The notes below the pieces were generated by a model. The model saw only the letters and a list, made by a program, of their open reading frames with translations. It was not told the origin of the DNA and did not search any database. 64,000 nucleotides of DNA from an uncultured delta proteobacterium. Lineage in GTDB: Bacteria; Desulfobacterota; Binatia; Binatales; Binataceae. The stretch spans positions 893,349 through 957,348 of the forward strand of contig CAWDXY010000004.1 of the NCBI GenBank assembly GCA_963806485.1. The letters run 5' to 3'. A program made the translations under genes and the position numbers. Below are positions 8,286 to 37,774 of this stretch, one piece after another (position 1 is the first letter of the stretch; each line of letters starts with the position of its first letter).

Positions 8286-8412
8286 CGCGCATCTTCAGGC
8301 CGACACGACTAGCGTGATGTCGCGACCGACATCCACTCTCCCGGAATGGCAAGAAAATGGCTCATTTACCTTCGCCGGCGTGGGCCTTGAGCAAGCGCAC
8401 GTTCGACGTCGC

Positions 8413-8712: not shown

Positions 8713-8736
8713 CCTTCACCGCCAAGAAAAACTTGT

Positions 8737-11526: not shown

Positions 11527-11653
11527 TCCGCATTGAAACTACGAGTTCCATGTAGATCAGGTATAAGCAACGATCGTCTTTGGGTCATCGGGTGCAGCAC
11601 AACTTTGCACCCGCCCCAACCGTCCAAGTCTCTGAAAAGACTAGACTAAATGT

Positions 11654-20070: not shown

Positions 20071-20090
20071 GGCTTCCTCGCAAGAGATCT

Positions 20091-22247: not shown

Positions 22248-22318
22248 TTTTGTTCTCCAAATTTCCTCGATCTATGAGCTTATGGGCTCCTTCGAACTTT
22301 CCTCTCCGTCGCAATGAC

Positions 22319-24136
22319 CTATCCGCCGAATGGAATAGGACCTAAGTGTTCTGCGAGAGGACCGAGCGCAGCCACAGGAAGGAACAACAGCGCGCCGACG
22401 ATGACGATCGTTCCAAAGAGCAGGCAGCCGAACGTAAAAGTGTCGTCACGAAGGGTTCCCAGCCCGAACGGAGTACTTTTCTTCAATCCAAGGAACGCTG
22501 CCATCGCGATCGGAGCGACGATCGGCAGATAGCGACCGAACAGGATCACCAGACCGCCTCCGATGTCCCACGGGACCGCCTCGGGTGCCGGACTTGTGTT
22601 GTTATTCAGTCCATAGCTCACGCCCAAGCCATCGAAGGCTGAGCCGTTGTTCGCCGATGATGACGAGAACTGATAAACGATTTGCGAAAGACCGTGGGCG
22701 CCCGGATTGCTCTCCGCCTTGATGCCCCAATTCGTTGCCGCGTAGAGTCCCGATGGTCCCAGAATCAGGAAGGGATGGACCAGCAGGGCGATCATCGCGA
22801 GCTTCACCTCGCGAGCGCCGATCTTCTTGCCCAGGTACTCCGGCGTTCGTCCAACCATCTGTCCGGCCAAAAAGACGCCGATGATGAGGAACAGCAGCAA
22901 GTTGATCATGCCGACGCCTTTGCCGCCATAAATGCAGTTGAGCCACATGCCCCAGAATGGCGAGAGCGCTGCGATAGGATTCAGGCTGTCATGCTCGCAG
23001 TTCACCGCACCGCAAGTCACATCGACCGTAGCAGCAGCAAAGGTAGCACCAGCCGAGGTCCCGAAACGCAGCTCCTTGCCCTCGAGATTGCCAAGGTGCT
23101 GATCGACCGGTAGTCCGGCCACGGCGGGAAGAGTAATGACCTGCTTTCCACCCGGCGCACCGGCGTTCGCGATCGTAAATGTCCGGCTCACGGGATGGGC
23201 AGTCAGACCCGGGTTGGGTTGCATGGTGTCGAAGTAGATCGCCCAGACAACTGTGCCGACGAATAACGTCAGCATGACCCCAAAAATCACAATCGAGTGA
23301 CGCAGCCTCCCCAGCATGCGTCCGTACATGAGCACGAGCGCCATCGGGAACAGCATCATGCAGAAGGTCTCGAAGAAATTTGTGCCTGCGCCCGGATTCT
23401 CGAAAGGATGAGCCGAATTCATGCCGAAAAATCCGCCGCCGTTGGTTCCCATCATTTTCATCGGGACGAAAGCAGCTAGTGGCCCCATTACGATGTTCTG
23501 CTGTTTGGGCTGATTGTTGTTGTCCAGCCCCATCGCAGCGGGTTCAAGCGTCGTGACCGTTTGGACGTTCTGATAGGTCATCGGCATCCCCTGTACGAGG
23601 AAGACCATCGAGATCACGAACGCCGCGGGTAGAAAGAAATAAACCACCACTCGCCACATATCGAGGAAGTAGTTGCCGAGATGAGAATCGCCGCGCAGCG
23701 CGCGGATTATGGCAGTAAGAGCGCATAAGCCGACCGCGGCAGAAAGAAAGAAGTTCGCTATACAAAAGAAGATCTGGCTGAAAATCGAGAAGGCTACGTC
23801 TCCCGAATAGTGCTGCATGTTCGTGTTCGTGATGAACGAGATCACACTATGGAAGATTGTGGTCGGCGCCAGCATTCCGAGTCCGCGCGGGTTAAGCGGC
23901 ATCCACGGCTGCAGCGAAAGCACCATATAGCCGTAAACGAACAGAGCTACGTTGAAAACTAAGAGAGCGAGCGTGTACTGTGTCCAACTCATCGGGCCAG
24001 AATCCAGGCGCTTCTCAAACCACTGCAAAACGCCCGGGGCGCGGTACTTGCCGTCCATGATCTTTGCCATATAGCTGCTGAGCGGAATGGCTATGGCGAT
24101 AGTGAAGACGATTATAGAAATGGGCAGAAGCCACAT
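22319..24136 (-). CDS. kdpA: potassium-transporting ATPase subunit A
   Basis: 605-aa polytopic membrane protein with KdpA selectivity-filter-like segments (MGTNGGGFFGMNSAHPFENP). Confidence 0.95.
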   Translation of the reverse strand: MWLLPISIIVFTIAIAIPLSSYMAKIMDGKYRAPGVLQWFEKRLDSGPMSWTQYTLALLVFNVALFVYGYMVLSLQPWMPLNPRGLGMLAPTTIFHSVISFITNTNMQHYSGDVAFSIFSQIFFCIANFFLSAAVGLCALTAIIRALRGDSHLGNYFLDMWRVVVYFFLPAAFVISMVFLVQGMPMTYQNVQTVTTLEPAAMGLDNNNQPKQQNIVMGPLAAFVPMKMMGTNGGGFFGMNSAHPFENPGAGTNFFETFCMMLFPMALVLMYGRMLGRLRHSIVIFGVMLTLFVGTVVWAIYFDTMQPNPGLTAHPVSRTFTIANAGAPGGKQVITLPAVAGLPVDQHLGNLEGKELRFGTSAGATFAAATVDVTCGAVNCEHDSLNPIAALSPFWGMWLNCIYGGKGVGMINLLLFLIIGVFLAGQMVGRTPEYLGKKIGAREVKLAMIALLVHPFLILGPSGLYAATNWGIKAESNPGAHGLSQIVYQFSSSSANNGSAFDGLGVSYGLNNNTSPAPEAVPWDIGGGLVILFGRYLPIVAPIAMAAFLGLKKSTPFGLGTLRDDTFTFGCLLFGTIVIVGALLFLPVAALGPLAEHLGPIPFGG

Positions 24137-24173
24137 GGCTTTGTCTCCTCTGTGGTGATCCTGTTGTAACTGT

Positions 24174-24254
24174 CTAGAACCACTCGGGCCGGATCATCGC
24201 GGCCAACAGGTAAATAAATACCAACGCGGCCACTATCGCTGTCATGATTATCAT
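24174..24254 (-). CDS. kdpF: potassium-transporting ATPase subunit F (26 aa)
   Basis: Minus-strand ORF MIIMTAIVAALVFIYLLAAMIRPEWF directly upstream of kdpA; single-TM peptide resembling KdpF; not in ORF track (too short); coordinates +/- 2 nt. Confidence 0.75.
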   Translation of the reverse strand: MIIMTAIVAALVFIYLLAAMIRPEWF

Positions 24255-24263
24255 CGCTGCCTC

Positions 24264-24359
24264 CTAGATCTTCTCGCACGCGACCAAAAACGCGAAACAG
24301 AGGCCGAGGCTGATGAGCCCCAAGAGGAACGTCCCAGGCAACCAGATGGCCACATCCAT
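24264..24359 (-). CDS. conserved 31-aa hydrophobic mini-protein upstream of kdpF (copy 1)
   Basis: ORF MDVAIWLPGTFLLGLISLGLCFAFLVACEKI; stop 9 nt before kdpF start with GGAGG in between; paralogous ORF before second kdp operon keeps frame and hydrophobicity. Confidence 0.55.
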   Translation of the reverse strand: MDVAIWLPGTFLLGLISLGLCFAFLVACEKI

Positions 24360-24533
24360 AGATTCATCCTACCTTTCCGCAAGCGATGAGCTGGCGGCAT
24401 GCTTCTCGAGATTCAGTTCAGCTGCCCTCAAAGCCTTTCGGATAGCCGAACGTAGACAACTCCGATTAAGAAAATTGCTACCGTTATGCCGACGAAAAGC
24501 ATGTCGAGCATGGTTCTCAAGCCTCAGGAGCAA

Positions 24534-24552
24534 GGCAGCACAAACCATGCCT
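24534..24552 (-). promoter_or_regulatory. candidate sigma-54 (-24/-12) promoter for kdp operon 1
   Basis: Minus strand reads AGGCATGgtttGTGCTG vs consensus TGGCACGnnnnTTGCW with conserved GG and GC at correct spacing, ~170 nt upstream of the mini-ORF. Confidence 0.25.
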
Positions 24553-24782
24553 CGGTATTTTCTATACGAATGCTATTTTTTTCGTCAGGGACGACTGGCG
24601 AGGGTTTCAAAATGATAAGTGACAGTGCGAATCGAAGGCCGGCAGGCTCTAGAGCCAAGTCGATATGTGGTAGTTCGATCAGGGTCAGGGCTGCAAGGGA
24701 TGTAGCTAACGGATACAGAAGTTGCGGGGCCGTTATCTATCGACCCCGCAACCCTTGACCTTGAAGCCAAGAAGGCCGCTAG

Positions 24783-25796
24783 TTATTGAGGCTGTCCGAA
24801 ACGGCTTGCTAATTGCAAATTGACTTGAAGAACATTGACAAATTTTTCCCCAAACAAGCCTCCTAGAGGAGCCGATGCGTTCGCCTCGAGTATTTGCTCG
24901 ATTTGATCGTGCACCTGTTTCGGGTCCAGTTTTTTATCGGCAGCCCATTTCTGAGAGACGCGATCCAGCTGATATTCCGCATTATCTAGAGTGATATGCG
25001 GGTCGAGGCCTGAGGCCGACGAGGTAACCATGTCACCGGGGACATCCTGGAGCGCTGCGTCTGGATGGTCTTGTCTCCACATGTCGAAGAAGATCGATTG
25101 CACATCCGATCCACTTGCGACCGGCTCGATGTCGGTCTGCGATTTGCCATTAGGCAGCTGCTTGGTCACTGGCGATGGGAACTTGCCGGGATTGTCCTTG
25201 GAGAAATTCTCGAAAAACAGTACAGCCAGGTCCGAGGGCTGTGGCTGTGGTGTGCCCGGATTCTGCTTGATCCACTCGTCCACCGCGCTCTTATGACTTT
25301 TGGACCAGTCAGTTACGTACTGAGCGTGAGTAAGATCGGCGCTTATCCATCCTTGCGCCAGCTCGTTGTGATCGTCAGCCCATTGTGCAACGAGATGCGG
25401 CTGACCCTGGAATTGATCTTTCTGAAACCACGCCTCGACATCCGGCGCAACCAACTGGCCAGCTTCGGGGCCGACCTTATATTTCACGATAGGTCCCAAT
25501 TGCCGGGCCACTCTGTCTCGTAGCGCGTAGTTAGATGCAGCGAGCGCCGATGAAGTACTGGCTGAGGCATCGTACGATGCCGCTGAGGGCCGTGGCCAGA
25601 AGTACTCGTCCTTTGTGAACGGCTGTGCGATCAACAGTGAGCCGACCGACTTGCCATCCGGTCCTGTGACCATGCTGCTATTGGCGGTAAAGGGAAAGAA
25701 GGTCTGGCCGATCGCCCACACTGCAAGCGGATAGGCTATCGCGCAAACTACGACTGTCGCAGTTAGGAGTATCAGGCTTTTGACTATGTTTCGCAT
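24783..25796 (-). CDS. kdpC: potassium-transporting ATPase subunit C, second copy (long form)
   Basis: ~75 percent identical to 19051..20070 product incl. the internal insertion. Confidence 0.85.
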   Translation of the reverse strand: MRNIVKSLILLTATVVVCAIAYPLAVWAIGQTFFPFTANSSMVTGPDGKSVGSLLIAQPFTKDEYFWPRPSAASYDASASTSSALAASNYALRDRVARQLGPIVKYKVGPEAGQLVAPDVEAWFQKDQFQGQPHLVAQWADDHNELAQGWISADLTHAQYVTDWSKSHKSAVDEWIKQNPGTPQPQPSDLAVLFFENFSKDNPGKFPSPVTKQLPNGKSQTDIEPVASGSDVQSIFFDMWRQDHPDAALQDVPGDMVTSSASGLDPHITLDNAEYQLDRVSQKWAADKKLDPKQVHDQIEQILEANASAPLGGLFGEKFVNVLQVNLQLASRFGQPQ

Positions 25797-25826
25797 CGCT
25801 TTTCTTATCCTCGAATGGAACCGTCC

Positions 25827-27992
25827 CTAGGCCACCACGTGCATTGTGGTGAGTATTATGTCGATAAGCTTTATGCCGATGAACGGTAAAATTACGCCGC
25901 CGACTCCCCAGACCATCAGATTTTTGCGCAACAAAGCATCGGCGCCGAGTGGCTGATACTTGACACCTTTCAGCGCCACTGGAATCAGGATTGGAATGAT
26001 GACGGCGTTGAAGATGACCGCCGACAGGATCGCTGACGTGGTCGAGTGAAGATTCATGATGTCCATGGCCTTGAGCCACGGCAGCGTACCGGCAAATAGC
26101 GCAGGGATGATCGCGAAATACTTGGCAACGTCGTTGGCGACCGAAAATGTCGTTAGCGCGCCGCGTGTCATCAGCAATTGCTTGCCAATCTCCACGACCT
26201 CGATCAGCTTGGTAGGATCGGAATCGAGGTCGACCATGTTGCCGGCTTCCTTAGCAGCCTGCGTTCCGGAGTTCATCGCCAGCCCGACGTCTGCCTGCGC
26301 CAGCGCGGGAGCGTCGTTGGTGCCGTCGCCAACCATCGCAACCAGCTTGCCTTCGCCCTGTTCTTTGCGGATGTAAGCCAGCTTCGATTCAGGAGTGCAT
26401 TGAGCGACGAAATCATCGACGCCGGCATGCCTCGCAATCGTCGCAGCAGTGAGCGGATTATCGCCTGTGATCATCACGCTGCGTACACCCATCGCGCGTA
26501 GACGTTGCAGACGCTCGCTGATGCCAGTTTTGAGGACGTCGGACAGTACGATGACGCCGACAATGTTTGCGCCCTCGGCCACCACGAGCGGCGTCGCTCC
26601 CTGCGAGCCGATAGCGTCGACTACAGAATCAAGATCCGATGGCATCGTGCCTGATTGGCGCTGGACAAACTTAGCCACCGCGTCCGGCGCTCCCTTGCGG
26701 ATCTGTTTGCCGTCGGGAAGATCGACACCGCTCATGCGGGTCTGCGCTGAAAAGGTAACAAAGCTCGTACCATTAGGAGCAGTCACATCGGCCGGAGTTC
26801 CGCCGCGATCAAAATGTAGTTTGACGATGGTCTTGCCCTCAGGGGTCTCATCGGCGATCGAAGCAAGTGCCGCCAAGCGTCCGACTTGCTGTGCGGTGTA
26901 TCGGCCTACCGGCAGGAAATCAGTCGCGTGCCGGTTACCCATGGTGATCGTGCCCGTCTTGTCGAGTAGGACCGTATCGATGTCGCCTGCGGTTTCGACG
27001 GCCTTACCGCTCTTGGCCATGATGTTCGCTTGCAGTGCGCGATCCATTCCGGCGATGCCAATGGCTGCCAGCAGCGCGCCGATCGTCGTCGGGATCAGAC
27101 ACACGAGCAACGCAACAAGCGTCGGTACATCCGTGCCCAGACTCTTTAGCGGTTCGGTGAGTCCGAGATATCCCGACATGTAGATCTCGGCATTCAGCGC
27201 CATCGGCCACAGCGGAATCACTACGATCAAAAACGCAAGGCTCAATCCGGCCAAAGCTAGTGTCAGCGCGATCTCGTTGGGTGTCTTCTGGCGTACAGCT
27301 CCCTCGACCAGAGCGATCATGCGATCGAGAAATGATTCGCCGGTTGCCGCTGTAATCTTCGCGACGATGCGATCCGAGACCACGCGAGTTCCGCCAGTAA
27401 CGCCAGAACGATCGCCGCCGGCCTCGCGGATCACAGGAGCTGATTCGCCGGTGATCGCTGATTCATCAACCGAAGCGATTCCTTCGATGATTTCGCCATC
27501 GCCCGGAATGATTTGCCCGGCCTCAACCACGACTCGGTCACCGGGTCGCAGGTCAGCGGACGACACCTCCTCGATCATATCCTTGCCCTTGAGCCGATAC
27601 GCCGGCGTATCCTTGCGGGCTTTTCGCAAGGATTCCGCCTGGGCGCGCCCGCGCGCCTCGGCCAGGGCCGTCGCGAAGTTCGCGAATAGGACAGTCAGCC
27701 ACAGCCAGAAGTCGAGAGCCACAAAGTAGCTGATAGGAACCTGGCTCACAGATTGACTGACCGCCGCTTGTATAATGAACATCAGCGTCAGTACGGAGCC
27801 GATTTCGACGACGAACATGACCGGGTTGCGCCACTGTACGTCCGGCCGCAGCATCAGGAATGCTTCCTTGATAGCTGGCCAGATCAGCTCGGGAGCGAAC
27901 AACGCCTGTGCGCGTGATCGCCGGGGCGGAATGGGCATCTCTGGCGTGATGTGAATCTCAGGTGGTGCAGGGTACTTTTTTAAAGCTTCCAT
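25827..27992 (-). CDS. kdpB: potassium-transporting P-type ATPase subunit B, second copy
   Basis: [17 protein letters not shown]; ~85 percent identical to first KdpB. Confidence 0.95.
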
Positions 27993-28053
27993 TATCGAGT
28001 CCTTAATGAGTCAATCGCGGATAAACGTGTCAGGCTCTAAGAGCTGGATCTAG

Positions 28054-29871
28054 CTAACCCCCGAAGGGTAGTGGCCCAAGATGTTCTGCGACCGGCCCGA
28101 GCGCGGCTACCGGCAGGAACAGCAAGGCGCCGACGATAGCGATCGTTCCGACCAGCAAGCATCCGAAGGTGAAAGTATCGTCGCGCAGAGTGCCCAAGCC
28201 GAATGGAGTGGTCTTTTTCATTCCAAGGAAACCCGCCATGGCGATCGGCGCCAAAATCGGCAAAAACCGGCCGAGAAGGATTACGAATCCCGCCGCTATA
28301 TCCCATGGAACAGCTTCGGGCGCGGCGTTCGGATTGTTATTCAGGCCGTAGGTGACTCCCAGGCCATCGAATGCGGAGCCGTTGTTAGCTGAGTCCGACG
28401 AGAATTGGTAAACGATTTGTGAGAATCCGTGGGATCCTGGATTGCTCTCGGCCTTTATTCCCCAGTTTGTTGCAGAGAACAATCCCGCCGGGAAAAGGAT
28501 GACCAACGGATGTACGAGCAGAGCAATTAGCGCCAGTTTCACTTCGCGCGCGCCGATCTTCTTTCCAAGGTACTCGGGCGTCCTGCCGACCATCTGCCCA
28601 ACTACGAAAATGCCGATGATGAGAAAGAGCAGCATGTTGATCATGCCGACACCTTTGCCGCCGTAGATGCAGTTCACCCACATTCCAAAGAAAGGCGACA
28701 ACGCCGCCATCGGGTTAAGGCTGTCGTGCTCGCAAATGATTGCGCCGCAAGTGAAATCCACCGTGGCGGCCGCAAACGTCGAGCCCGCGGAAGTCCCGAA
28801 GCGCAGCTCCTTGCCCTCCAAGTTGCCGAGATGCTGATCGACGGGCAGGCCTGCCACGGCAGGCAGAGTAATGTCGCGCTTGCCCCCGGGCGCAGTGGCG
28901 CTTGCAATCGTGAACGTTCTACTTTGCGAATGAGCTGTAAGCCCTGGGTTAGGCTTTAGAGTATCGAAGTAGATTGTCCACAGAATTGTACCCGCGAGCA
29001 GAACAAACATCACCGAGAATATGACCAATGAATGGCGCGGGCGTCGTAACATCGCGCCGTACATCCACACCAGCGCCATCGGAAACCACATCATCGATGA
29101 GGTAGTGATGAAGTTCGACGCGGCATCCGGGTTTTCAAACGGGTGCGCCGAATTCATCCCGAAGAATCCGCCGCCATTCGTTCCCAACATCTTCATTGGA
29201 ACGAAGGCAGCCAGAGGACCAGTTACAATCGTTTGCTGTTTGGGTTGATTGTTGTTGTCCGTGCCCATCGCGGCAGGCTCGAGCGTGTTTACCTGATAGT
29301 CGCTCTGATAGGTCATCGGCATGCCTTGAACCAAAAAGACCATGCTCAGGATGAAGACCGCAGGCAGGAACGTGTAGAACACAACGCGCCACATATCCTG
29401 AAAGAAGTTGCCTACGTGCTCATCGCTGCGAAAGGCTCGAATGATCGCTGTCAGGGCGCAAAACCCTATCGCCGCCGAAAGAAAAAACATCGGAAGGCAA
29501 AAGAATATCTGGCTGAAATTCGAGAACGACTGGTCGCCGGAATAGTGTTGGATGTCGGTGTTGGTACTGAAAGATATGACGGTATTAAAAATGGTACTCG
29601 GCGCAAGTGCTCCGAGGCCGCGTGGGTTTAGCGGCGCCCACGGCTGAAGCACCAATACCAGGTATCCGAAAGCATAAAGAACCGTATTGAATACAAGCAG
29701 AGAGACCGCATACTGCTTCCAGTTCTGCGGTCCGCTGCTAACCCGGTCCTCACACCACTTGAATAGCAGTGGAGGACGGTAATGTCCGTCCATGATCCAG
29801 GCCAGATACCTGCCTAGAGGATAGGAGACAGCAACGCTGAAAATGAGAACCGTGATAGGCAAAGACCACAT
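28054..29871 (-). CDS. kdpA: potassium-transporting ATPase subunit A, second copy
   Basis: 605 aa, ~80 percent identical to first KdpA. Confidence 0.95.
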   Translation of the reverse strand: MWSLPITVLIFSVAVSYPLGRYLAWIMDGHYRPPLLFKWCEDRVSSGPQNWKQYAVSLLVFNTVLYAFGYLVLVLQPWAPLNPRGLGALAPSTIFNTVISFSTNTDIQHYSGDQSFSNFSQIFFCLPMFFLSAAIGFCALTAIIRAFRSDEHVGNFFQDMWRVVFYTFLPAVFILSMVFLVQGMPMTYQSDYQVNTLEPAAMGTDNNNQPKQQTIVTGPLAAFVPMKMLGTNGGGFFGMNSAHPFENPDAASNFITTSSMMWFPMALVWMYGAMLRRPRHSLVIFSVMFVLLAGTILWTIYFDTLKPNPGLTAHSQSRTFTIASATAPGGKRDITLPAVAGLPVDQHLGNLEGKELRFGTSAGSTFAAATVDFTCGAIICEHDSLNPMAALSPFFGMWVNCIYGGKGVGMINMLLFLIIGIFVVGQMVGRTPEYLGKKIGAREVKLALIALLVHPLVILFPAGLFSATNWGIKAESNPGSHGFSQIVYQFSSDSANNGSAFDGLGVTYGLNNNPNAAPEAVPWDIAAGFVILLGRFLPILAPIAMAGFLGMKKTTPFGLGTLRDDTFTFGCLLVGTIAIVGALLFLPVAALGPVAEHLGPLPFGG

Positions 29872-29912
29872 TCGCTTTCCGTCCTATTATGTGATTTGAG
29901 AGATGAAGGTCG

Positions 29913-29993
29913 CTAAAACCATTCGGGCCGAACCATCGCGGCGACCAGGTACCCGAACACGAGAACTGCAACGATTGCTGTGACGTAAATCAT
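29913..29993 (-). CDS. kdpF: potassium-transporting ATPase subunit F, second copy (26 aa)
   Basis: ORF MIYVTAIVAVLVFGYLVAAMVRPEWF upstream of kdpA2; ends ...RPEWF like copy 1. Confidence 0.75.
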   Translation of the reverse strand: MIYVTAIVAVLVFGYLVAAMVRPEWF

Positions 29994-30008
29994 GATTAAC
30001 CACGCGCC

Positions 30009-30104
30009 CTAGATCTTTTCGCAACCGATCAAGAACAGATAGCAGAGACCTAGGCCGGCAAGCCCGAGCAGAAAAGTCCCTGGCAACCAAGTCCAAAGAT
30101 CCAT
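30009..30104 (-). CDS. conserved 31-aa hydrophobic mini-protein upstream of kdpF (copy 2)
   Basis: ORF MDLWTWLPGTFLLGLAGLGLCYLFLIGCEKI; LPGTFLLGL and CEKI-stop conserved with copy 1. Confidence 0.55.
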   Translation of the reverse strand: MDLWTWLPGTFLLGLAGLGLCYLFLIGCEKI

Positions 30105-30514
30105 AACGCCCTCCAATCGAGAAATCGGCAACTCGCTGTCTGTTGCCCGAATGACAACCGACGAAGCGACGCAGCCTGAACAGAGGGCGGAAATAGCAAG
30201 TTCGGTGCTGACTGAAACATCGAGGAACGACGCCGACCTTTAAAATGTGAAAAGTCGTGGGTGCTCAGCGCGCGTCGAGCAGGTGCTGAAGTAAGGATCA
30301 CTCTAAGAGGTCGTCGGATTTCAAAATGAAACTTTTACCCGAGCTGATCTTGAAGAAGGTCGAGTTGGTCGGGGCCGACGACCGCCTATTTTGTTATGTT
30401 GAACCCTGTACTGATGAGTCCGGGTGCGGAAGGAATCGATAAGACTTAGGCGCTCGAGACTACTAGTACCCATTCGAGAATGTCAGCGAGGACGAATCGC
30501 ATCTTCATTTTATT

Positions 30515-30829
30515 TCATCGGACACTGCTGGGTTGCCGCACGGATGAGTCAGAATCCTCATCGAACTTGAAGATTCCGATGCTTTCTGGTTGGACTTTCT
30601 CGAGAACAGCGTGAACGGTGGGTTTGGTTTGCTCGTCAAGGACCGCGAATTCCACTTTGATCGTCGATCCCGTGACCGATTTGTGCTCTCCACTTATAGA
30701 GAGTCGTTGGTGATCGCAGAGTCTGGTCTTTGGCACAGACAAATCAAATCCAAAGATTCCGAGGTTCTTTGCGCATCGGTGGAAGTCGTCGAGAGCCGAG
30801 CGCGCGATAATCGCTTCTATTCTCTTCAT
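30515..30829 (-). CDS. PII-like (GlnB-fold) signal-transduction protein, divergent family
   Basis: MKRIEAIIARSALDDF... N-terminus and overall ~105 aa matching the P-II double beta-alpha-beta pattern, T-loop divergent. Confidence 0.55.
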   Translation of the reverse strand: MKRIEAIIARSALDDFHRCAKNLGIFGFDLSVPKTRLCDHQRLSISGEHKSVTGSTIKVEFAVLDEQTKPTVHAVLEKVQPESIGIFKFDEDSDSSVRQPSSVR

Positions 30830-31276
30830 ACAGGTCGATTGGTTGCCGAGATCCTTTATCGTGAGAGGAGCAGGAACTATGCCTTAGACCGAAGTCAGCC
30901 AATATCAAGTGCTTTTCTCTGCTAAGCCGTTGTCCCACCTCGAGCGTGAAACCCAGGCATTTCAGCGTGAAATCAAATCGGGGTCTTTGCGAGGCGAGTT
31001 CGGCTGATCGCAAATTGACTGCGAACCTATCACCAGGACCGCACCTCTGAGGTTGCGGCCCCACGAGCACCGACCTTCAAGAACTGTCGCGTTACCTGGT
31101 ATATGCGACCGCCATTTCAAAATGAACGATGGACGCTATTCAAAAAGAAATCGCGTGTGCGCAGAGTAAACCACAACTCAAGCAAATCGCAGCTTTTTTC
31201 GAACGGCACACGCTATGCAGATGAATTACAGACGCCGATGCCGCTTCCGAGGATGCGGCAGAGGCCGGGAGAAGTG

Positions 31277-31633
31277 ATGAAGCGAATTGAATTAGTAATT
31301 GAACCATCGGCGCTCGACCGTTTCATAGAGGCCGCGCAAGTGATGAATTTGTCTGACTTTGACGTCACTGAAGTTCGCCGCTCGCCGTCGCACGATCGGC
31401 GAGAACGCCAGCGACTATACCGAGGTCAAACGTTCATCATCGATCTCGAAGAGCGGATCAAAGTCGACATCAACGTAGCTGACGAAGCAGCGAGCAGAAC
31501 CGCGCATGTATTAGTCGCGAGGGTCAATCCTGAAAGCGTCTCGATTCTTAGGCTCGACCAGGTGACTTTGTTCGAAGGTTCCGAGCCGATCAGAGTTACA
31601 GCTTCGTCCCGCGGGGCCGACGTTGCAGCATAG
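31277..31633 (+). CDS. PII-like (GlnB-fold) signal-transduction protein, second paralog (start at internal Met of ORF 31103..31633)
   Basis: MKRIELVIEPSALDRFIEAAQ...LYRGQTFIIDLEERIKVDINVAD parallels GlnB LYRGAEYMVDFLPKVKIEIVV. Confidence 0.55.
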   Translation: MKRIELVIEPSALDRFIEAAQVMNLSDFDVTEVRRSPSHDRRERQRLYRGQTFIIDLEERIKVDINVADEAASRTAHVLVARVNPESVSILRLDQVTLFEGSEPIRVTASSRGADVAA

Positions 31634-31906: not shown

Positions 31907-32545
31907 ATGCATTCTGGTTACGACGGACCAAGGTTTACTATGAAGCCAAACCCTATGGTTCAGTACCCTTTCCTGGGCGGCTTTCTCGGCGCCAAGCTGG
32001 ATGGGATCTCGCTCATCCAAGTGCATCCGCTTGACCCATATACTCTTGTCAATCTGCAGCCGTCTGATCCGCCTGCCGCCGAGCCGAAGCACGCAAGGGT
32101 TCCTTCATCCGCAACCCGACAAAATTCGAGCCGCACCAGGGAAAGACCGGCCTTCACAGCCGAGGAAACGCGGCACCATTTCGCGATTGAAGCATTGGAC
32201 AAGTCCGGACCATTTCGGCCGCAGCCATATATGTACACCTGCGTCCGATGCAAATGGATCTTTCGCATCAACGATTCGCGCGGTTCCGTCATAGCTCTGG
32301 ACGGGTTGGGCAGGCGTCTGCTCGAGCCTGAAAACGCAAAGCGGGTCGTGACCTTTCACCGAGGACCGTGTCCTGCCTTTCCAGTCCGCGAGTACCTCCT
32401 ACCCGAGGTTGAGCGCGAAAATCGATTTCGTCGATATATTTCAAGAATTGTCGAAGTACTACGCGGCGTCACCGTCAGACATCGAAGCCGCACTAGCGAG
32501 CAGGAAACGACCCGGCTTGAGAACCAGGAACGCCTCAAGGTCTGA
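31907..32545 (+). CDS. hypothetical protein
   Basis: 212-aa ORF, no recognised motif (one CxxC pair). Confidence 0.3.
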   Translation: MHSGYDGPRFTMKPNPMVQYPFLGGFLGAKLDGISLIQVHPLDPYTLVNLQPSDPPAAEPKHARVPSSATRQNSSRTRERPAFTAEETRHHFAIEALDKSGPFRPQPYMYTCVRCKWIFRINDSRGSVIALDGLGRRLLEPENAKRVVTFHRGPCPAFPVREYLLPEVERENRFRRYISRIVEVLRGVTVRHRSRTSEQETTRLENQERLKV

Positions 32546-32555
32546 AAACGTAGCC

Positions 32556-33026
32556 TTAGGCAGCGCGGCCTGCCTTTTCGTGATCAGCATTACCGGCACG
32601 CAGTCGGCTCGCCAGTTCTAGCGCGATTCTTCGCCACAGTCGGGGGTATTCGTCGGCAACCGCCGAAAAGTCAGGTTCAGCGATCCTGGCTACTACAGAA
32701 TCAGAAGTAGCGGTGACCGAAGCCGATCGGGGCGTAAATGGATCGACAACGGCCATCTCGCCGACGTGCTCACCGCCTTTTTTCCAAGCCACGATGCGTC
32801 CGTCGATCGTAATCGAAAACCTGCCACACAGGATCAGGAAAAGATCTGTATCGGATGCACCCTGCTCTACTAGATTCGTTCCGGCGCGTACCTCTTCCAA
32901 TTTTAAGTGCCGTTCGACGACGACGGCTAGTTCCTTGTCGCGGATCAGCGGCTGGGAGATCAACGCGTCAATGAGACGCAATTTTCCGTCCGCGCCCTGG
33001 AACGATTTCAACAGGGATTCTTTCAT
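32556..33026 (-). CDS. cyclic nucleotide-binding (CAP effector-type) domain protein
   Basis: FLILCGRFSI...GEMAVVD...RSASVTATSDSVVARI fits the cNMP-binding beta-roll pattern (G-E-x-A-L ... R-S-A-T-V). Confidence 0.6.
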   Translation of the reverse strand: MKESLLKSFQGADGKLRLIDALISQPLIRDKELAVVVERHLKLEEVRAGTNLVEQGASDTDLFLILCGRFSITIDGRIVAWKKGGEHVGEMAVVDPFTPRSASVTATSDSVVARIAEPDFSAVADEYPRLWRRIALELASRLRAGNADHEKAGRAA

Positions 33027-33353
33027 GATTCCCTCATCTTCTCCCGTGGATGTTTTTGTTCTCCAGTGGATGTTTTGTTTGTTGACGATTGAAGGAGAAC
33101 CTGCAGTTTCTTATACCGCGTTGAGGTCTATCGCTGTTTCGTTGGAAGCGACCTCGCCATCTAACTCCGCATTAATCGTGCCGAACGGGGAGCCAGAGGA
33201 AGGACGAGCTTTTCGCTAGCCAAAAGCTCGACACATTTCAAATTGAACGGCGCTGACGATTTGATTTTGAAATGCCGCTCTTCTTGCCGCTCGAAAAAAT
33301 CGTTGACTGTCATGATAGTTGGTGACGGCACAGTTAATGCTGAATAGCAGCGC

Positions 33354-33824
33354 ATGGCCAGCATCGTTATATCCAGGTCGCGTTCACGCGCTGACTCGGT
33401 TGGCCAGAGAGATTTGAGGCTGGTCTCGAGTGGTGGTCTAAACGACCTCGTTGTCACTCGAGCTTCAGAGCAATCCGCAAAGACTGCTGTGATCGCCTGT
33501 TTGATAGGCCGCGATCCTGACAACAGCGAACTGCTCCATAAAGCCTCGGCCGCTGCTCGCGAACGTGACGGCGAATTCTACATCGTTCTGGCAGATTCGC
33601 CGCGCACCCGATTTGGAAAGGCACAGGTTCGCGCTCTAATCGAAGTCGCGCTCCTTGCGAGCACCCTTGGCGCGAAAGTCGTGTGGCTCGAATCGTCCGA
33701 CAGAGTCCGCGATCTAGTCAAGTTAACGCGTCAAATTGCACATCGACCGGATCTTCGTTCATCGAAGTCGGCCGGCTCTGTTCTCTCGGCTATTCCGGGT
33801 GCACAGTTTATTCCGGTCTGCTGA
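33354..33824 (+). CDS. stand-alone universal-stress-protein-like domain protein resembling the Usp region of KdpD
   Basis: AVIACLIGRDPDNSELLHKASAAARERDGEFYIVLADSPRTRFGKAQVRALIEVALLASTLGAKVVWLESSDRVRDLVKLTRQ parallels E. coli KdpD ILLCIGHNTGSEKLVRTAARLASRLGSVWHAVYVETPALHRLPEKKRRAILSALRLAQELGAETATLSDPAEEKAVVRYARE (from memory). Confidence 0.45.
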   Translation: MASIVISRSRSRADSVGQRDLRLVSSGGLNDLVVTRASEQSAKTAVIACLIGRDPDNSELLHKASAAARERDGEFYIVLADSPRTRFGKAQVRALIEVALLASTLGAKVVWLESSDRVRDLVKLTRQIAHRPDLRSSKSAGSVLSAIPGAQFIPVC

Positions 33825-33899
33825 GCCGCGTACAAGGGATCCGTATCGACGTTGTTGGGTTTTGAACGCGGGCGATGATTTCAGGAAAAGAGGAGGACG

Positions 33900-34904
33900 G
33901 TGGACGAAGAACGCATAGCCCTGGATCGTCCGATGCCTCGTCTCATTGACGATTTTGCTCCGCTGCTCGAATCGAACGTACCGCTGATGCAGCGCTTGCT
34001 GGAGAAGGCGAAGCGCGCAGCGGCCAGCGACGAGACGATCCTTCTCACCGGCGAGAGCGGTACCGGCAAAGGCGTCCTCGCACAGCAGATCCATAAATGG
34101 AGTCGACACGCCGTAGGTCCTTTCGTTACTGTTAACTGCACGCGTCACTCCGAACATCTTCTCGAAAGCGAGTTGTTCGGTCACATGCGGGGCGCGTTCA
34201 GCGGTGCCGTGAAGGACAAGCGCGGAGGGCTCGAAGCCGCGCACGGCGGCTCGGTCCTGCTCGACGAAATCTCAGATCTGACCCTTCCCCTTCAGCGCAA
34301 GCTCCTGCACTTCATCAAGGAACAGAGCTTCGAGCGGATGGGGAGCGAAGCCACGATTAACGTCGATGCTCGGATGATTGCTGCGTCCAGCCGCGATCTG
34401 GCAGCGGAAGCCGCGGCACGGCGATTCCGTGACGATCTTTACTATCGACTGAGTGTAATCACTTTGCGGGTTCCGACGTTGCGTCAACGTCAGGACGACA
34501 TCTTGCCTCTGGCAACGCGAATGCTCGCCAGCTCCGCTTTCCATCACGCTCGTCCAAGTCTGCGCCTTTCTTTCGAGGCGTCTACGGTGCTGCTCCGCTA
34601 TCGATGGCCGGGAAATATCCGCGAGTTGCGCAACGTCATCGACCGCGCTGTCGTTTTGTGCACGGGCGAGGTGGTAACGCTTGATCATCTTGCGGACGTT
34701 CTCAGTAATAGCCCTCGACCGCTCGCGACGACCACGCCGCCTTCGAGCCTCGACGACATCGAGCGTGAACATATCATCCGTGTTATGGCGGAAAGTCCGA
34801 CGCTAGAAACCGCAGCACACAGGCTGGGCATAAATATCACCACGCTATGGCGCAGGCGCAAACGCTACGGACTTGATTCGAGCCCCAACGTCCCGAGAAG
34901 TTAG
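33900..34904 (+). CDS. sigma-54 interaction domain transcriptional activator lacking a receiver domain (AAA+ + Fis HTH only); GTG start with GAGGAGG RBS
   Basis: GESGTGKG Walker A, GAFSGA loop, C-terminal HTH; ~60 percent identical to central/C-terminal part of RR 16609..17943. Confidence 0.85.
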   Translation: MDEERIALDRPMPRLIDDFAPLLESNVPLMQRLLEKAKRAAASDETILLTGESGTGKGVLAQQIHKWSRHAVGPFVTVNCTRHSEHLLESELFGHMRGAFSGAVKDKRGGLEAAHGGSVLLDEISDLTLPLQRKLLHFIKEQSFERMGSEATINVDARMIAASSRDLAAEAAARRFRDDLYYRLSVITLRVPTLRQRQDDILPLATRMLASSAFHHARPSLRLSFEASTVLLRYRWPGNIRELRNVIDRAVVLCTGEVVTLDHLADVLSNSPRPLATTTPPSSLDDIEREHIIRVMAESPTLETAAHRLGINITTLWRRRKRYGLDSSPNVPRS

Positions 34905-36065: not shown

Positions 36066-37774
36066 CTAGGCAACGCGATGACTAGTCCGACGATTTACAG
36101 AGCCTGCGAGCAGCCCGCGCACGCAAATCGCGCCACGCCAAAAGGCATTGTTGTCCCGACAGGCCGACCGAGTCGCTACGGCACCGAAATCGGCGAAAGG
36201 ACAACACCACTGGTCGGGAAGGCGACTACGATTGGCTTTCCGGTCGTCGTGCTGGCCGCCGAAATTATTCGACGGCGGATTGAAATTCAGGTTTCCGGGA
36301 ACTGGGGTCGCGGTCGGAGTGGGGGTCGGTGTCTTTCTGGGCTTTGGCGTCTTTGTGGTTATCGCGGTCGCCGTGGGCGTAGCCGACACGGTCGGGGTTG
36401 GCGTTGTCGAAGTCGCGGTCGCTGTGGCAGTTGCGGTCGGGGTTAGCGTTGTCGAAGTTGCGGTCGCTGTGGCAGTTGCGGTCGGGGTTCGCGTTGTCGA
36501 AGTCGCCGTAGCCGTCGCGGTCGGCGTAGCCGACCCGGTCGACGTTGTCTTCGCGGTGGCGGTCGCGGTAGCTGTCGGCGTGGCCGTCGCGGTCGCTGTG
36601 GGAGTGGCCGACCCGGTCGCGGTTGCGGTCGGCGTGGAAGTGGGTGACGCAGTCGAACTGGATGTTGAGGTTGGTGTCGCGGTCGCTGTGGCAGTCGCGG
36701 TCGCCGTTGCCGTCGAGGTGGCAGTTGCGGTTTGAGTCGCGGTCGCGGTCGGCGTCGCAGTTGGCGTGGCGGTCGGCGTGGCAGTAGGCGTCGGGGTCGG
36801 CGTAGGCCCGGGAACCACGCCGTCGAACTCGAACGCGCCGATGTCGCAGGCGCTGTCGAGCGCGGGTCGCGGCGCGCCGCGCTGGTCGGTGGCCGGGCAA
36901 TTGGCAGCTGGGATCGCCTCGATCGCAAAACTGGGTGAATCAAGCGCGATGGTCTCGGTTGGTCCCAGGTTATTTGCGAGGCCGGCGGCGAGGTTCAGAT
37001 TAGCGTCAGCGACGCTATCGCCGATCGCATCGCCGTTGGCGGCCGTGCTGCTCCCGAAGCCGCAGGAAGCGTCATCCGAGATATTGTCGCCGCCATTGGT
37101 GACAGTCGGCGTCGCCGACCCTGAGCAGTTACCGCCCGAAGTGCTCTTCGCCAATATGCTGTTGGTGATAGTTGTCGTGCCTTCATTGTAGATGCCGCCA
37201 CCAAGTCCGCTCGCCGAGTTGCCGGAGAAGGTGCTGCTGTTGAGAGTCAGCGTGCCGCCGAGAGACTATTGTAGATGCCGCCACCGAAAAGGATCGCCGT
37301 CGAATTGCTGGAGAAGGTGCTGTTGGTGACCGTCCGCGCGCCTCCCTCACTGGCGATGCCGCCGCCATCATCGCCCGACGAATTGCCCGAGAAGGTGCTG
37401 TTGGCGACTGTCTGCGTGCCTCCAACAGTGAAGATGCCGCCGCCAAGCTGGCCCGCCGAGTTGCTGTAGAAGGAGCTGTTGGTGACCGTCAGCGTGCCGT
37501 CATTAAGGATGCCGCCGCCCGGGCCAGCCGCCGAGTTGCCGGAGAAGGTGCTGTTGGAGACCGTCAGCGTGCCGCTGCTTGAGCTGCTTGAGATGCCACC
37601 GCCGAATCCTGATGTATTATTGCCGTGAGCAATCGTCAGCAGGTTTACAGTCAGAGTGGCGCCCGTATTCACCACCAAAACACCGAGCAACGCCGGTCCG
37701 GCAGTCGGCCCCTGAAGTAGAATGTAGGCCACGACCGTTCGAACATCGCCCCCTCGGATCGTGCCCGGACGCAA
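36066..37774 (-). pseudogene. degraded paralog of the beta-helix / TP-linker adhesin-like family (frame break ~37155-37260, no signal peptide, aberrant C-terminus)
   Basis: ORF 37247..37774 encodes beta-helix rungs (TLTVSNSTFSGN, TLTVTNSSFYSN) and ORF 36066..37154 the TPTATPTAT linker, in different frames; C-terminus lacks choice-of-anchor-D domains. Confidence 0.6.

Follow-up and report, generated by a model that had tools for sequence, protein, structure and literature searches.

A KdpD-type universal stress protein gene beside a receiver-less sigma-54 activator at the edge of a predicted sigma-54-controlled kdp island in Binataceae

Results

Gene content of the locus

The window, by which we mean the whole stretch of 64,000 nucleotides analysed here, carries two kdpFABC operons, P-II-like genes, an open reading frame named orf212, a gene for a cNMP-binding protein, a gene resembling universal stress proteins (USP) and a gene for a sigma-54 enhancer-binding protein (EBP), in that order (Table 1). 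The two ORFs of the sequence-only reading, 33354-33824 and 33900-34904, are both found where it placed them. Two of the neighbours were examined for a link to KdpD or c-di-AMP and set aside. The Cys-rich sequence of orf212, considered as a hidden KdpD_N, has no Walker A and no match in Pfam, NCBIfam or PDB, and the P-II-like proteins, considered as DarA/PstA-type c-di-AMP receptors, match canonical GlnB/GlnK P-II instead.

Table 1. Positions of genes and regulatory elements within the window
Feature	Position	Strand	Remarks
NtrC-type response regulator, receiver-containing EBP paralog	16609-17943	-	downstream of second kdpC
PAS-HisKA-HATPase kinase	17943-19088	-	downstream of second kdpC
Two tandem kdpFABC operons	19051-30210	-	each with promoter element and repeat
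kdp operon 2 promoter, GGCATGGTTTGTGC	24538-24551		repeat CATTTTGAAAC at 24604-24614
kdp operon 1 promoter, conserved cAGCAC-N5-TTGCT	30196-30210		repeat CATTTTGAAAT at 30318-30328
Stand-alone cyclic-nucleotide-binding-domain protein	32556-33026	-	156 aa; divergent; in conserved island
Divergent sigma-54-type promoter toward cNMP-binding gene, GGCACGATTAATGC	33169-33182	-	far side of the same repeats
Upstream repeat 1 (candidate EBP binding site), ATTTCAAATTGAACG	33235-33249	.	family consensus palindrome cATTTCAAATTGAAATg
Upstream repeat 2, ATTTGATTTTGAAAT (consensus cGATTTTGAAATGt)	33259-33273	.	about 12-14 nt past repeat 1; A-tract aaaaaatcgttg next
Predicted sigma-54 -24/-12 promoter of USP-EBP operon, GGCACAGTTAATGC	33327-33340	+	GC 13 nt before ATG
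USP-like ORF as called	33354-33824	+	156 aa, ATG start
USP-like (pseudo)gene, full extent	33354-33878	+	ancestral stop TGA at 33876-33878
RBS of EBP, AAGAGGAGG	33888-33896	+	within 21-nt ancestral spacer
EBP, receiver-less sigma-54 activator	33900-34904	+	334 aa, GTG start, intact

The USP-like gene is frameshifted in the window

With three homologous loci as the reference for insertion calls, the window copy of the USP gene was found to carry three +1 insertions, in AAA at 33733-33735, CC at 33795-33796 and TTTT at 33860-33863. Taking out one A, one C and one T gives back an ORF of 173 aa that ends in ...IDVVGFERGR and whose stop codon lies 21 nt ahead of the EBP start. In the ORF as called, residues 1-127 are family-like (disordered N-tail, then beta1 to alpha3), the family match ends at residue 127, and the last 29 residues (128-156) are an out-of-frame translation; the product lacks beta4, alpha4 and beta5, and the lost C-terminus is still legible in the other two frames (HIDRIFVHRSRPALFSRLF / TVYSGLLSRVQGIRIDVVGF). 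The sequence-only reading had taken the 156-aa ORF as a gene separated from the EBP by 75 nt, but because of the frameshifts this gap is an artefact, the ancestral spacer being 21 nt. As sequenced, the window USP gene is probably non-functional, and annotation should flag the 156-aa ORF as a frameshifted gene, not a protein.

The only second sequence with the insertions is Logan contig L006, which is 100% identical to the window over 32357-34333 (1977 bp) and may come from the same sample; at other loci, Logan and ENA contigs are likewise identical. Metagenome scans for the sequence flanking insertions 1 and 2 gave no match. Of the 53 columns conserved to 90% or more, the corrected USP protein departs from the family at 6, among them the otherwise invariant A77, which is I here; its nearest relative departs at 1. 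Relative to locus L001, the USP gene has three times the dN of its neighbours, a suggestive value from small counts, and omega in the shifted tail is about 1.1, also from small counts. Over the N-terminal 35 codons, frame 0 is open in 26 of 27 loci and the other frames in 7 and 6, while codon-position entropy over this tail shows little periodicity; its coding status rests on the openness of frame 0 rather than on entropy. A further frame break occurs in the window near 37256-37268.

The small protein belongs to a KdpD-type USP family

Proteins of the USP family are stand-alone and normally 162-176 aa long (162-221 aa and no second domain in all 33 members), with a disordered tail of about 40 residues followed by a KdpD-type USP alpha/beta domain. 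The loci with a specific taxon name are all Binataceae. Searches with the 156-aa ORF as a single sequence (Pfam, NCBIfam, PDB) returned only sub-threshold or spurious matches, namely DacZ_P (0.0068), designed repeat proteins and a weak hit to profile positions 250-334 of NCBIfam KdpD PRK10490 (E=0.017), with nothing above the Pfam cutoff, and the assignment needed a family profile. The sole PDB match of this profile is 7JI4 (E=3.5e-8, profile 21-170 against chain 2-151), the S. aureus KdpD-USP with c-di-AMP (Dutta et al. 2021, PMC8214093). In a library of 1.8 billion proteins the profile matched the USP position of KdpD_N-carrying proteins (E=1e-22 to 1e-9), at about residues 220-385 in proteins with Pfam KdpD (PF02702), with or without DUF4118, GAF and kinase.

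The AF2 model of P0002, the nearest intact homolog (86% identical), has a (beta-alpha)4-beta5 core (E45-50, H57-70, E75-79, H89-104, E108-111, H117-127, E130-136, H151-158, E163-167) with pLDDT of about 75-92, lower near residues 81-90 and 141-148, and Foldseek placed 7ji4 at the top (TM 0.85, rmsd 2.2 A) with classical USPs next. The small protein family is a KdpD-type USP domain; the likeness to KdpD that had been claimed for the ORF is solid at the family level and weak for the ORF alone. Pfam Usp (PF00582) matches 3 of the 33 members, with a best E of 0.042 that is below the gathering threshold, and cannot serve as a test for this clade; true KdpD proteins are also borderline for it (24.2 bits against a cutoff of 24).

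To call the pair a split KdpD, as the sequence-only reading did, is too strong. The USP domain alone is KdpD-like, all 33 family members stand alone and are not embedded after KdpD_N, a scan of most window ORFs of at least 150 aa turned up no KdpD_N, and the local kinase is of the PAS-HisKA-HATPase type. Among the 20 distant relatives scanned, which are KdpD_N/USP proteins with kinase or PTS_EIIA_2 domains, there was no "Rosetta stone" fusion of USP to AAA+.

Ligand motifs

The published c-di-AMP motif of KdpD USP is (A/G/C)-x-S-x-S-x2-N in the beta1-alpha1 loop, together with a conserved Gly329 (PMC8214093). Leu occupies the first position in 32 of the 33 USP sequences; the equivalent of S244 is Ala (23), Gly (8) or Thr (2), that of S246 is Ser in 19, that of N249 is Asn in 32, and that of Gly329 is Gly in 1; no alternative register for the motif fits. 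The family also lacks the ATP motif of the UspFG type, G-x2-G-x9-G-(S/T) in the beta4-alpha4 region, of which the first two glycines are missing; this region reads F-V-(A/T)-R-(N/S)-R-P...F-G-R-T. The window ORFs scanned include no diadenylate cyclase, and an Rfam search of 15000-37000 gave no c-di-AMP or other riboswitch and no match at E<=1. The c-di-AMP lead that had been drawn from KdpD USP thus fails the sole sequence test available, the published motif not being conserved.

The activator and its NtrC-type paralog

The EBP consists of Sigma54_activat (PF00158, E=1.7e-59, residues 27-189), AAA_lid_14 and a Fis-type HTH_8, with Walker A GESGTGKG and loop GAFSGA, and a Pfam search found no Response_reg in it. 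Its AAA+ domain begins at about residue 27, and its orthologs are 330-335 aa long. Judged by its sequence, it is a sigma-54 enhancer-binding protein of the regulatory-domain-less class, PspF-like with AAA+, lid and HTH only. The description of the second ORF as a receiver-less AAA+ activator with GAFSGA and Fis-type HTH was correct, as was that of a ribosome-binding site ahead of it, and HMM searches bore out the assignment of both proteins, directly for the EBP and through the family profile for USP. Paralogy to the NtrC-type regulator downstream of kdpC also holds, at 56% identity over 311 aa rather than the 60 percent or so first given, and the recognition helices of the two are near-identical (TLWRKRKRY against TLWRRRKRY).

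Promoters and upstream repeats

All loci with the USP gene (26 others examined) have a GGCAC-N6-TGC promoter element ahead of it, at 27 nt from the ATG in most and 24-26 nt in a few. With the promoter this close, the USP transcript is predicted to be near-leaderless, starting about 2 nt ahead of the start codon. The GG-N10-GC element, at a conserved position in the USP-carrying loci, supports transcription of the pair from a predicted sigma-54 promoter. Between the USP and EBP genes there is no sigma-70-like promoter and no convincing terminator.

Some 55-105 bp upstream of the USP promoter lie two ATTTCA/TGAAAT repeats, which the 26 other loci share together with the A-tract; in most of them the repeats sit at the corresponding place, with minor variants. 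The divergent promoter ahead of the cNMP-binding gene has counterparts at 13 other distinct loci. Where 0.29 matches to the pattern GGCAYNNTTNNTGC would be expected in the window, there are 7, of which 4 lie in intergenic regions of the kdp island. The repeats recur at 24604, 30318, 30959 and 31114, with similar elements ahead of kdp operon 2, the P-II-like gene and the cNMP-binding gene; the promoter of kdp operon 1 is a weaker variant, with A for G at -25. That the EBP and the NtrC-type regulator might serve the same sigma-54 promoters, as had been proposed, is plausible from this recurrence ahead of kdp and neighbouring genes.

Pairing across loci

Of 30 loci, 11 have both USP and EBP intact, 5 have a decayed EBP, 10 have no EBP and 2 have lost USP. 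The earlier expectation that the pair recurs is borne out by the 11, but the pairing is not obligate, the EBP being absent or decayed in half of the loci. Where both are intact, about 20 nt separate the two genes (21 nt in most of these loci) and the EBP usually starts with GTG; given this spacing, their co-transcription is likely. The promoter and repeats persist in loci without an adjacent EBP, and another activator must therefore use them. Between EBP-less loci the omega of USP is 0.21-0.29, the same as between EBP-containing loci; being under purifying selection there, USP cannot be a partner of the EBP only.

Discussion

Kdp regulation is the textbook two-component paradigm (KdpD/KdpE), and the role of the USP domain in KdpD is debated, with UspC docking in E. 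coli and c-di-AMP binding in Firmicutes. Here a KdpD-type USP is a separate conserved gene under purifying selection, at predicted sigma-54 promoters and often beside a receiver-less activator. Our data go most of the way to establishing that the locus is one copy of a USP-EBP bicistronic operon known from Binataceae-type MAGs, and that it lies at the margin of a potassium-homeostasis island under predicted sigma-54 control. Because it stands alone, the USP isolates the function of the module from the kinase, and could help to find out what a KdpD-type USP senses or contacts. In an uncultured soil phylum, the locus also documents a predicted kdp regulon that is fully of sigma-54 type and whose operator motif can be recognised; it includes an unusual sigma-54 transcript predicted to be near-leaderless.

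Their near-identical recognition helices make it probable that the receiver-less EBP and the NtrC-type regulator, in its phosphorylated form, recognise one set of repeats. Both would thus act on the kdp operons, on the P-II-like and cNMP-binding genes and on the operon of USP and EBP itself. On this view the EBP would amplify the kdp regulon independently of phosphorylation and form a positive-feedback branch of it, and its activity would depend mainly on the amount of EBP made. The co-transcribed USP protein would most likely be a brake or ligand-sensing adaptor on AAA+ activators, and would also have an EBP-independent role. The window genome as sequenced would be a natural USP-null in which the EBP is retained, a status that falls if the three insertions are assembly errors. 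The mechanistic steps of binding, ligand and USP-EBP interaction are all ones that we infer from sequence, and our confidence in the explanation as a whole only just passes the halfway mark. Against it count the lack of a USP-AAA+ fusion in the 20 relatives, the loss of both nucleotide motifs, the A at -25 in the operon 1 promoter, and the 15 of 30 loci in which the EBP is absent or decayed while USP keeps an omega of about 0.2-0.3. Its boldest form, in which a kinase-free KdpD-type USP acts in trans as a ligand-responsive brake or adaptor on sigma-54 AAA+ activators and gives kdp in Binataceae a phosphorelay-independent input from a leaderless sigma-54 transcript, is a tentative proposal that we doubt more than we believe. 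If true, it would add a new class of EBP partner protein, and the window genome (USP broken, EBP kept) together with the genomes of opposite loss would be natural genetic dissections of the circuit.

The USP protein might instead have a function of its own in which the neighbouring EBP plays no part: it could be an adaptor for the PAS kinase or NtrC-type regulator or for the KdpFABC pump, or else a general stress protein. The EBP would then be an accessory paralog that merely happens to be co-transcribed and is in the course of loss in many lineages. We regard this as a real possibility that stays short of probable. The 10 EBP-less loci and the 5 with EBP remnants, which keep USP, promoter and repeats, argue for it, as do the equal omega values, the position of the USP gene directly after kdpC in L032 and the joining of the KdpC C-terminus to USP in P0074. 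In E. coli, moreover, UspC docks on the USP domain of KdpD, and KdpE is stabilised on DNA by the N-terminal part of KdpD. The tight spacer, the shared promoter and the 11 intact pairs nevertheless point to a functional link where both genes exist, and a self-activating receiver-less EBP with no brake would be an unusual design. Improbable, in our view, is a c-di-AMP receptor like the S. aureus KdpD USP, coupling c-di-AMP levels to sigma-54 kdp transcription: 7JI4, a c-di-AMP complex, is the closest solved relative in sequence and fold, the N249 and S246 equivalents are retained as described above, and c-di-AMP control over K+ uptake is widespread (PMC8214093, PMC4686210), but the first motif position, the S244 and the Gly329 equivalents have all changed, and neither a diadenylate cyclase among the window ORFs scanned nor a riboswitch in 15000-37000 was found. 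We give hardly any credence to the idea that USP and EBP form one polypeptide by read-through of a single stop, with USP as the N-terminal sensory domain of the activator. The two share a frame in 13 of 16 loci, with one stop (mostly TGA) and 7 sense codons between them, and in L008 the stop has become TGG and USP is fused to an EBP remnant; yet L002, L017 and L018 are out of frame, the constant short spacer is expected from descent and ribosome-binding-site geometry, the EBP gene comes with a start codon and a ribosome-binding site of its own, and we identified no read-through signal.

A different kind of alternative concerns the window copy itself: the insertions could be assembly or consensus errors, in which case the 156-aa ORF would be an artefact and the USP gene of the organism would be intact, at 173 aa. 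All three are +1 changes in homopolymers whose removal gives a perfect family-length ORF, related long-read MAG loci have split kdpB, kdpC or EBP genes that look like indel errors (L012, L016, L017, L021, L024), L006 is not clearly independent, and the window has the further frame break mentioned above. The homopolymers are short, however (2, 1 and 3 bases before insertion), which is atypical for consensus errors; both sets of kdpA/B/C, the kinase, the regulator, the EBP, the cNMP-binding gene and orf212 are unbroken relative to homologs; and the three breaks fall inside 130 bp. The departures of the corrected protein at conserved columns and the raised dN and omega against L001, the latter two from small counts, likewise speak against such errors, and we consider assembly error possible but rather unlikely.

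Comparison with known systems

The closest known relative of the USP family is the KdpD USP domain, its sole significant solved relative (7JI4, PMC8214093; profile and fold scores given above). The family profile matches the USP position after KdpD_N in both full-length and short KdpD, the ATP Walker-like motif is absent from both, and the family is linked to kdpFABC in the genome. Unlike KdpD, the family is stand-alone, without KdpD_N, membrane, GAF or kinase part; it has not kept the c-di-AMP motif, its window copy is frameshifted, and its gene has its own predicted sigma-54 promoter with leaderless start. Classical stand-alone USPs (UspA / UspFG, PF00582) share the alpha/beta fold and are of similar size, but the family lies below the Pfam Usp cutoff, lacks G-x2-G-x9-G-(S/T) and is closer to KdpD USP domains.

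For sigma-54-dependent kdp, the sole precedent found in our literature search was Desulfovibrio vulgaris Hildenborough, whose regulator DVU3334 we take to be NtrC-type. There KdpD is split into DVU3336, with K+-sensor and UspA domains, and the kinase DVU3335, with DVU3334 as co-cistronic regulator (Rajeev et al. 2011, PMC3333781). As in our locus, the sensory parts of KdpD are encoded apart from the kinase, and kdp is under a regulator that binds its own operon (PMC3333781). The D. vulgaris protein differs in retaining KdpD_N and in lying within the kdp operon, and the parts of that report available to us mention no receiver-less EBP partner (PMC3333781). A literature search for the USP gene "kdpQ" of haloarchaeal kdp operons found nothing.

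Receiver-less EBPs controlled in trans are familiar from PspF/PspA, HrpR-HrpS/HrpV and NifA/NifL, the last co-transcribed as nifLA. Our EBP resembles this type in having neither a receiver nor another N-terminal regulatory domain and in being, in all likelihood, co-transcribed with a small or sensory protein. It differs in its candidate partner, which has the USP fold and is kept without the EBP in many genomes; to our knowledge, USP-fold proteins are not an established class of anti-activator. The nifLA operon of Klebsiella is itself sigma-54-dependent, and in this the USP-EBP operon, with its predicted sigma-54-type promoter, would be alike.

A stand-alone family of KdpD-type USP domains

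Our family profile, built from an alignment of 33 intact members, has one significant match among all PDB sequences, 7JI4 (E=3.5e-8 over the whole domain), which is the USP domain of Staphylococcus aureus KdpD with c-di-AMP bound (PMC8214093). The AlphaFold model of P0002, the closest intact relative of the window protein (173 aa, 86% identical), has a disordered tail (residues 1-41) followed by a confident (beta-alpha)4-beta5 core, and Foldseek placed 7JI4 at the top of its PDB matches (TM 0.85, rmsd 2.2 A over 125 residues), above many classical USPs. The profile found 746 matches in 1.84 billion representative proteins; 19 of the 20 multi-domain or atypical ones that were domain-scanned are KdpD- or kdp-context proteins, always matched at the USP position, and the remaining one has no Pfam match. 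Their architectures comprise KdpD_N+USP+DUF4118+GAF+kinase, a short KdpD_N+USP form (about 390 aa) and one KdpC-USP junction. Profile, fold and position thus bear out the sequence-only reading of the first ORF as a KdpD-type USP domain. Its description as a split KdpD was not borne out: none of the window ORFs scanned yielded a KdpD_N domain. The stand-alone family may have arisen by loss of the KdpD_N part, which fits the profile alignment of the conserved LRLV of the N-terminal tail with the linker preceding the USP domain of S. aureus KdpD.

Also present among the scanned relatives are KdpD_N+USP+PTS_EIIA_2 and USP+PTS_EIIA_2 fusions (P0097, P0107, P0122, P0127, P0133, P0139, P0142), which physically link the sensory part of KdpD to an EIIA(Ntr)-type domain and recall the EIIA(Ntr)-KdpD interaction of E. 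coli.

Window features discussed in the text, with position and strand
Feature	Position	Strand	Remark
Class III nucleotide cyclases	3833-6496, 51457-53700	+	partial cyclase with AAA_16; CHASE2-cyclase
Phage-like genes	7047-12505	-	tyrosine integrase, ParB-N6/N4 DNA methylase, small terminase subunit
Large beta-helix/Ig-domain proteins	12754-15486, 55209-57707
Truncated paralog of these	36066-37774	-	two frames near 37256-37268
NtrC-type response regulator	16609-17943	-	444 aa, after PAS-HisKA-HATPase kinase and second kdpC
KdpC proteins	19051-20070, 24783-25796	-	337-339 aa
Hydrophobic ORF (MLDMLFVGITVAIFLIGVVYVRLSERL)	24486-24569	-	27 codons
GGCAYNNTTNNTGC match	24538-51	-	before kdp operon 2
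GGCAYNNTTNNTGC match	30870-83	-	before P-II-like gene
GGCAYNNTTNNTGC match	33169-82	-	before cNMP-binding gene; conserved in 13 other distinct loci
GGCAYNNTTNNTGC match	33327-40	+	before USP gene
ATTTCA-N3-TGAAAT-like repeats	30318, 30959, 31114, 33235, 33259; half-site 24604
Promoter/repeat set	24538-24614, 30196-30332, 30870-30973, 31114-31128, 33169-33273
P-II-like gene	30515-30829	-	104 aa
P-II-like gene	31103-31633	+	176 aa
orf212	31907-32545	+
USP ORF as called	33354-33824	+	ATG start, 156 aa
Insertion 1, extra A in GTCAAATTGC	33733-35		DNA alignment
Insertion 2, extra C in TATTCCGGG	33795-96		DNA alignment
Insertion 3, extra T in GGGTTTTGA	33860-63		DNA alignment
Shared-frame USP/EBP junction	33876-33902
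AAGAGGAGG upstream of EBP start	33888-33896	+	ribosome-binding site
EBP ORF	33900-34904	+	GTG start, 334 aa

The window copy carries three frameshifts

Both ORFs are present where the sequence-only reading had placed them. By itself, the 156-aa ORF has no above-threshold family match in Pfam, NCBIfam or PDB, a weak pointer being NCBIfam KdpD (E=0.017, profile positions 250-334, the USP region). When 5.8 billion proteins were searched, 52 relatives besides the window's own product came up, stand-alone without exception and, where named by JGI, called 'KdpD'; in all of them the alignment is confined to roughly residues 1-127 of the window ORF (52-82% of query). P0002 continues ...RQLHIDRIFVHRSRPALFSRLFGRTVYFDLLSRAQGIRIDVVGFESRR, and C-terminal residues like these are encoded in the window nearly unchanged, divided between the two remaining frames. 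Aligning three homologous loci with it at the DNA level revealed three single-base insertions in the window, and removing all of them restores a 173-aa ORF that ends in GFERGR, with its stop at 33876-33878 and a 21-nt spacer to the EBP start, as in most orthologous loci. Because of the three frameshifts, the last 29 residues of the called ORF and the 75-nt gap earlier described between the genes are artefacts. The frame break falls at the end of helix alpha3, and the window product, without beta4, alpha4 and beta5, would be unlikely to fold as a USP domain.

The window USP gene is, with fair probability, a real pseudogene. Every other island gene compared (two sets of kdpA/B/C, kinase, regulator, EBP, cNMP-binding gene and orf212) aligns to its homologs unbroken, whereas the USP gene alone has three breaks within 130 bp, at homopolymers that are short. 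Even after correction, the protein deviates at 6 of 53 columns conserved at 90% or more (P0002 at 1), and has Ile at Ala77, otherwise invariant in the family. Compared with the homologous locus L001, and on small counts, the gene has a dN about threefold that of its neighbours and, in the shifted tail, an omega of about 1.1. An assembly artefact, which we judge rather unlikely, would fit three +1 homopolymer events that jointly cancel to a perfect ORF, as it would the obvious frame breaks in kdpB, kdpC or EBP of related long-read MAG loci and the one other frame break in the window, in the truncated beta-helix paralog, which makes that a second disrupted gene. The sole other sequence with the insertions, a Logan contig (ERR12036785) 100% identical over 1977 bp, is not clearly independent, and two metagenome scans with the sequence flanking insertions 1 and 2 gave no further copies.

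The receiver-less activator and its kdp-linked paralog

Pfam assigns Sigma54_activat (E=1.7e-59, residues 27-189), AAA_lid_14 and HTH_8 to the 334-aa EBP and detects no receiver or other N-terminal domain; GAFSGA is its sigma-54 contact loop. Domains and loop agree with the earlier description as a receiver-less sigma-54 activator with a Fis-type HTH. Its paralogy to the kdp-linked NtrC-type regulator also stands, at 56% identity over 311 residues of the AAA+/HTH part, below the claimed 60% or so. The recognition helices of the two are near-identical (ITTLWRRRKRY vs IPTLWRKRKRY).

The pair is partially co-conserved

A scan of one genome per species gave 27 loci, and with ENA loci and the window the set comprises 30 distinct loci. 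Those with a specific taxon name belong to Candidatus Binatus or Binataceae, the others bearing only generic 'delta proteobacterium' labels; the lineage is Binatota, Binatia, Binatales, Binataceae.

State of the USP-EBP pair in the 30 loci
State	Loci	Members
USP and full-length EBP	11	L004, L010, L013, L016 (EBP with one frame break), L017, L018, L019, L023, L024, L025, L027
USP intact, EBP truncated or remnant	5	L001, L002, L008, L009, L020
USP present, no EBP within 10 kb	10	L011, L012, L014, L021, L022, L026, L028, L030 (in-frame stop in USP), L031, L032
Contig ending just past USP	2	L007, L029
USP disrupted or deleted, EBP intact	2	window, L033

The pair recurs, with USP and full-length EBP together in 11 of the 30 loci, and the observation that would have refuted the sequence-only reading, a pair never conserved together in other genomes, was thus not made. 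Upstream synteny is kept (kdpFABC, P-II-like gene, orf212, often the cNMP-binding gene, then USP) and is lost downstream of the unit. Omega is 0.21-0.29 for USP genes in EBP-less loci and equal in EBP-containing ones, and the USP protein clearly has a function independent of an adjacent EBP. In 13 of 16 loci (the window, L004, L007, L009, L010, L013, L016, L019, L020, L023, L024, L025, L027) the two genes share a reading frame, separated by one stop, mostly TGA, and seven sense codons; in the other three they are out of frame. The shared frame is probably inherited spacing; stop-codon read-through joining the two proteins would be an unlikely alternative.

In L008 (10001-10874), from the genome whose kdpA and kdpB are most similar, the USP stop codon is TGG and the domain is fused in frame to an EBP remnant of lid and HTH only, its AAA+ core deleted and with a further frame break, exemplifying decay of the unit. 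In L004 (11738-14865), a classical Usp (PF00582) gene and one for a Na+/H+ exchanger with a fused cNMP-binding domain come after the EBP and extend the cation-homeostasis theme of the island.

A sigma-54-type promoter and repeat set across the kdp island

One layout ahead of the USP gene is common to all 26 other loci examined: the palindrome cATTTCAAATTGAAATg, in variant form at some of them, cGATTTTGAAATGt 12-14 nt after it, an A-tract, and GGCAC-N2-TT-N2-TGC, a -24/-12 element that by its sequence is a GG-N10-GC sigma-54-type promoter. Its first G mostly stands 27 nt ahead of the ATG, a few loci having 24-26 nt instead. If transcription begins at the standard distance from this element, the predicted start is some 2 nt short of the ATG, and the mRNA would be near-leaderless and could not accommodate a Shine-Dalgarno sequence, which would be unusual for a sigma-54 transcript. 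Translation does begin at this ATG: frame 0 stays open over the first 35 codons in 26 of 27 loci, as opposed to 7 and 6 for the two alternative frames, and orthologs differ in length by whole codons.

The pattern GGCAYNNTTNNTGC occurs seven times in the window against 0.29 expected, four of these being intergenic in the island. Kdp operon 1 has cAGCAC-N5-TTGCT, with A for G at -25, a variant conserved in 15 further loci. Sigma-54-type promoters and repeats precede the two kdp operons as well as a P-II-like gene, the cNMP-binding gene and the USP-EBP pair, and the set looks like one sigma-54 potassium regulon. Since both are kept in loci lacking an adjacent EBP, another activator must use them, most simply the NtrC-type paralog.

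Several neighbouring features accompany this set. Both kdpFABC operons are complete and in tandem; both KdpC proteins are nearly twice the usual length, and their Pfam KdpC match falls into two separate parts, suggestive of a large insertion. The 27-codon ORF lies between the sigma-54-type promoter of operon 2 and kdpF-like small ORFs. Among the genes that separate kdp operon 1 from the USP unit are two divergent P-II-like ones; the longer product, extended by 58 residues at its N-terminus, matches GlnB/GlnK structures at 2e-7, while the shorter matches weakly (0.011) and its gene is served by a sigma-54-type promoter of its own. In most loci a conserved orf212, frequently as a tandem pair, immediately precedes the USP or cNMP-binding gene; it has a C-x2-C ... 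C-P pattern and no match in Pfam, NCBIfam or PDB. The class III cyclases may be relevant to the stand-alone cNMP-binding protein of the island.

Ligand motifs

The c-di-AMP motif of the KdpD USP domain is (A/G/C)-x-S-x-S-x2-N plus a conserved Gly329 (Dutta et al. 2021, PMC8214093). In our 33 members the first position is Leu in 32, the S244 equivalent is always Ala, Gly or Thr, Ser is kept at S246 in 19 and Asn at N249 in 32, and a single one has Gly at 329; other alignment registers did not fit. The proposed c-di-AMP link thus loses its published motif, and as a receptor for this ligand the protein fails the available sequence test. The ATP motif G-x2-G-x9-G-(S/T) is absent from the family, and a riboswitch search of 15000-37000 found none.

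Possible function and related systems

We propose that both activators bind the shared repeats, and that the EBP, placed behind a promoter of the very regulon it would activate, is an amplifier with positive feedback, controlled through its expression and independent of phosphorylation. The USP protein, probably co-transcribed with the EBP, might restrain or tune the AAA+ activators in the manner of the PspA-PspF, HrpV-HrpS and NifL-NifA pairs, and would have an EBP-independent role as well. The window genome would then be a USP-null that keeps its EBP, a state shared by L033, where the USP gene is deleted. The chief alternative is that the USP protein acts elsewhere, on kinase, regulator or pump, the EBP being an accessory paralog, and frequent EBP loss speaks for it. 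The functional USP-EBP link is putative, and the window copy of USP is broken.

In our literature search, neither a stand-alone KdpD-type USP gene with a receiver-less EBP as its partner nor a Binataceae sigma-54 kdp regulon turned up. Nothing in the unit contradicts current understanding; the clean comparative signal invites experimental work on the role of the KdpD-type USP domain. Trans-regulated receiver-less EBPs are among the closest known systems. So are the KdpD USP domain of 7JI4 and the split KdpD of Desulfovibrio vulgaris, which comprises a K+-sensor+UspA protein (DVU3336), a kinase (DVU3335) and a co-cistronic regulator (DVU3334) (PMC3333781).
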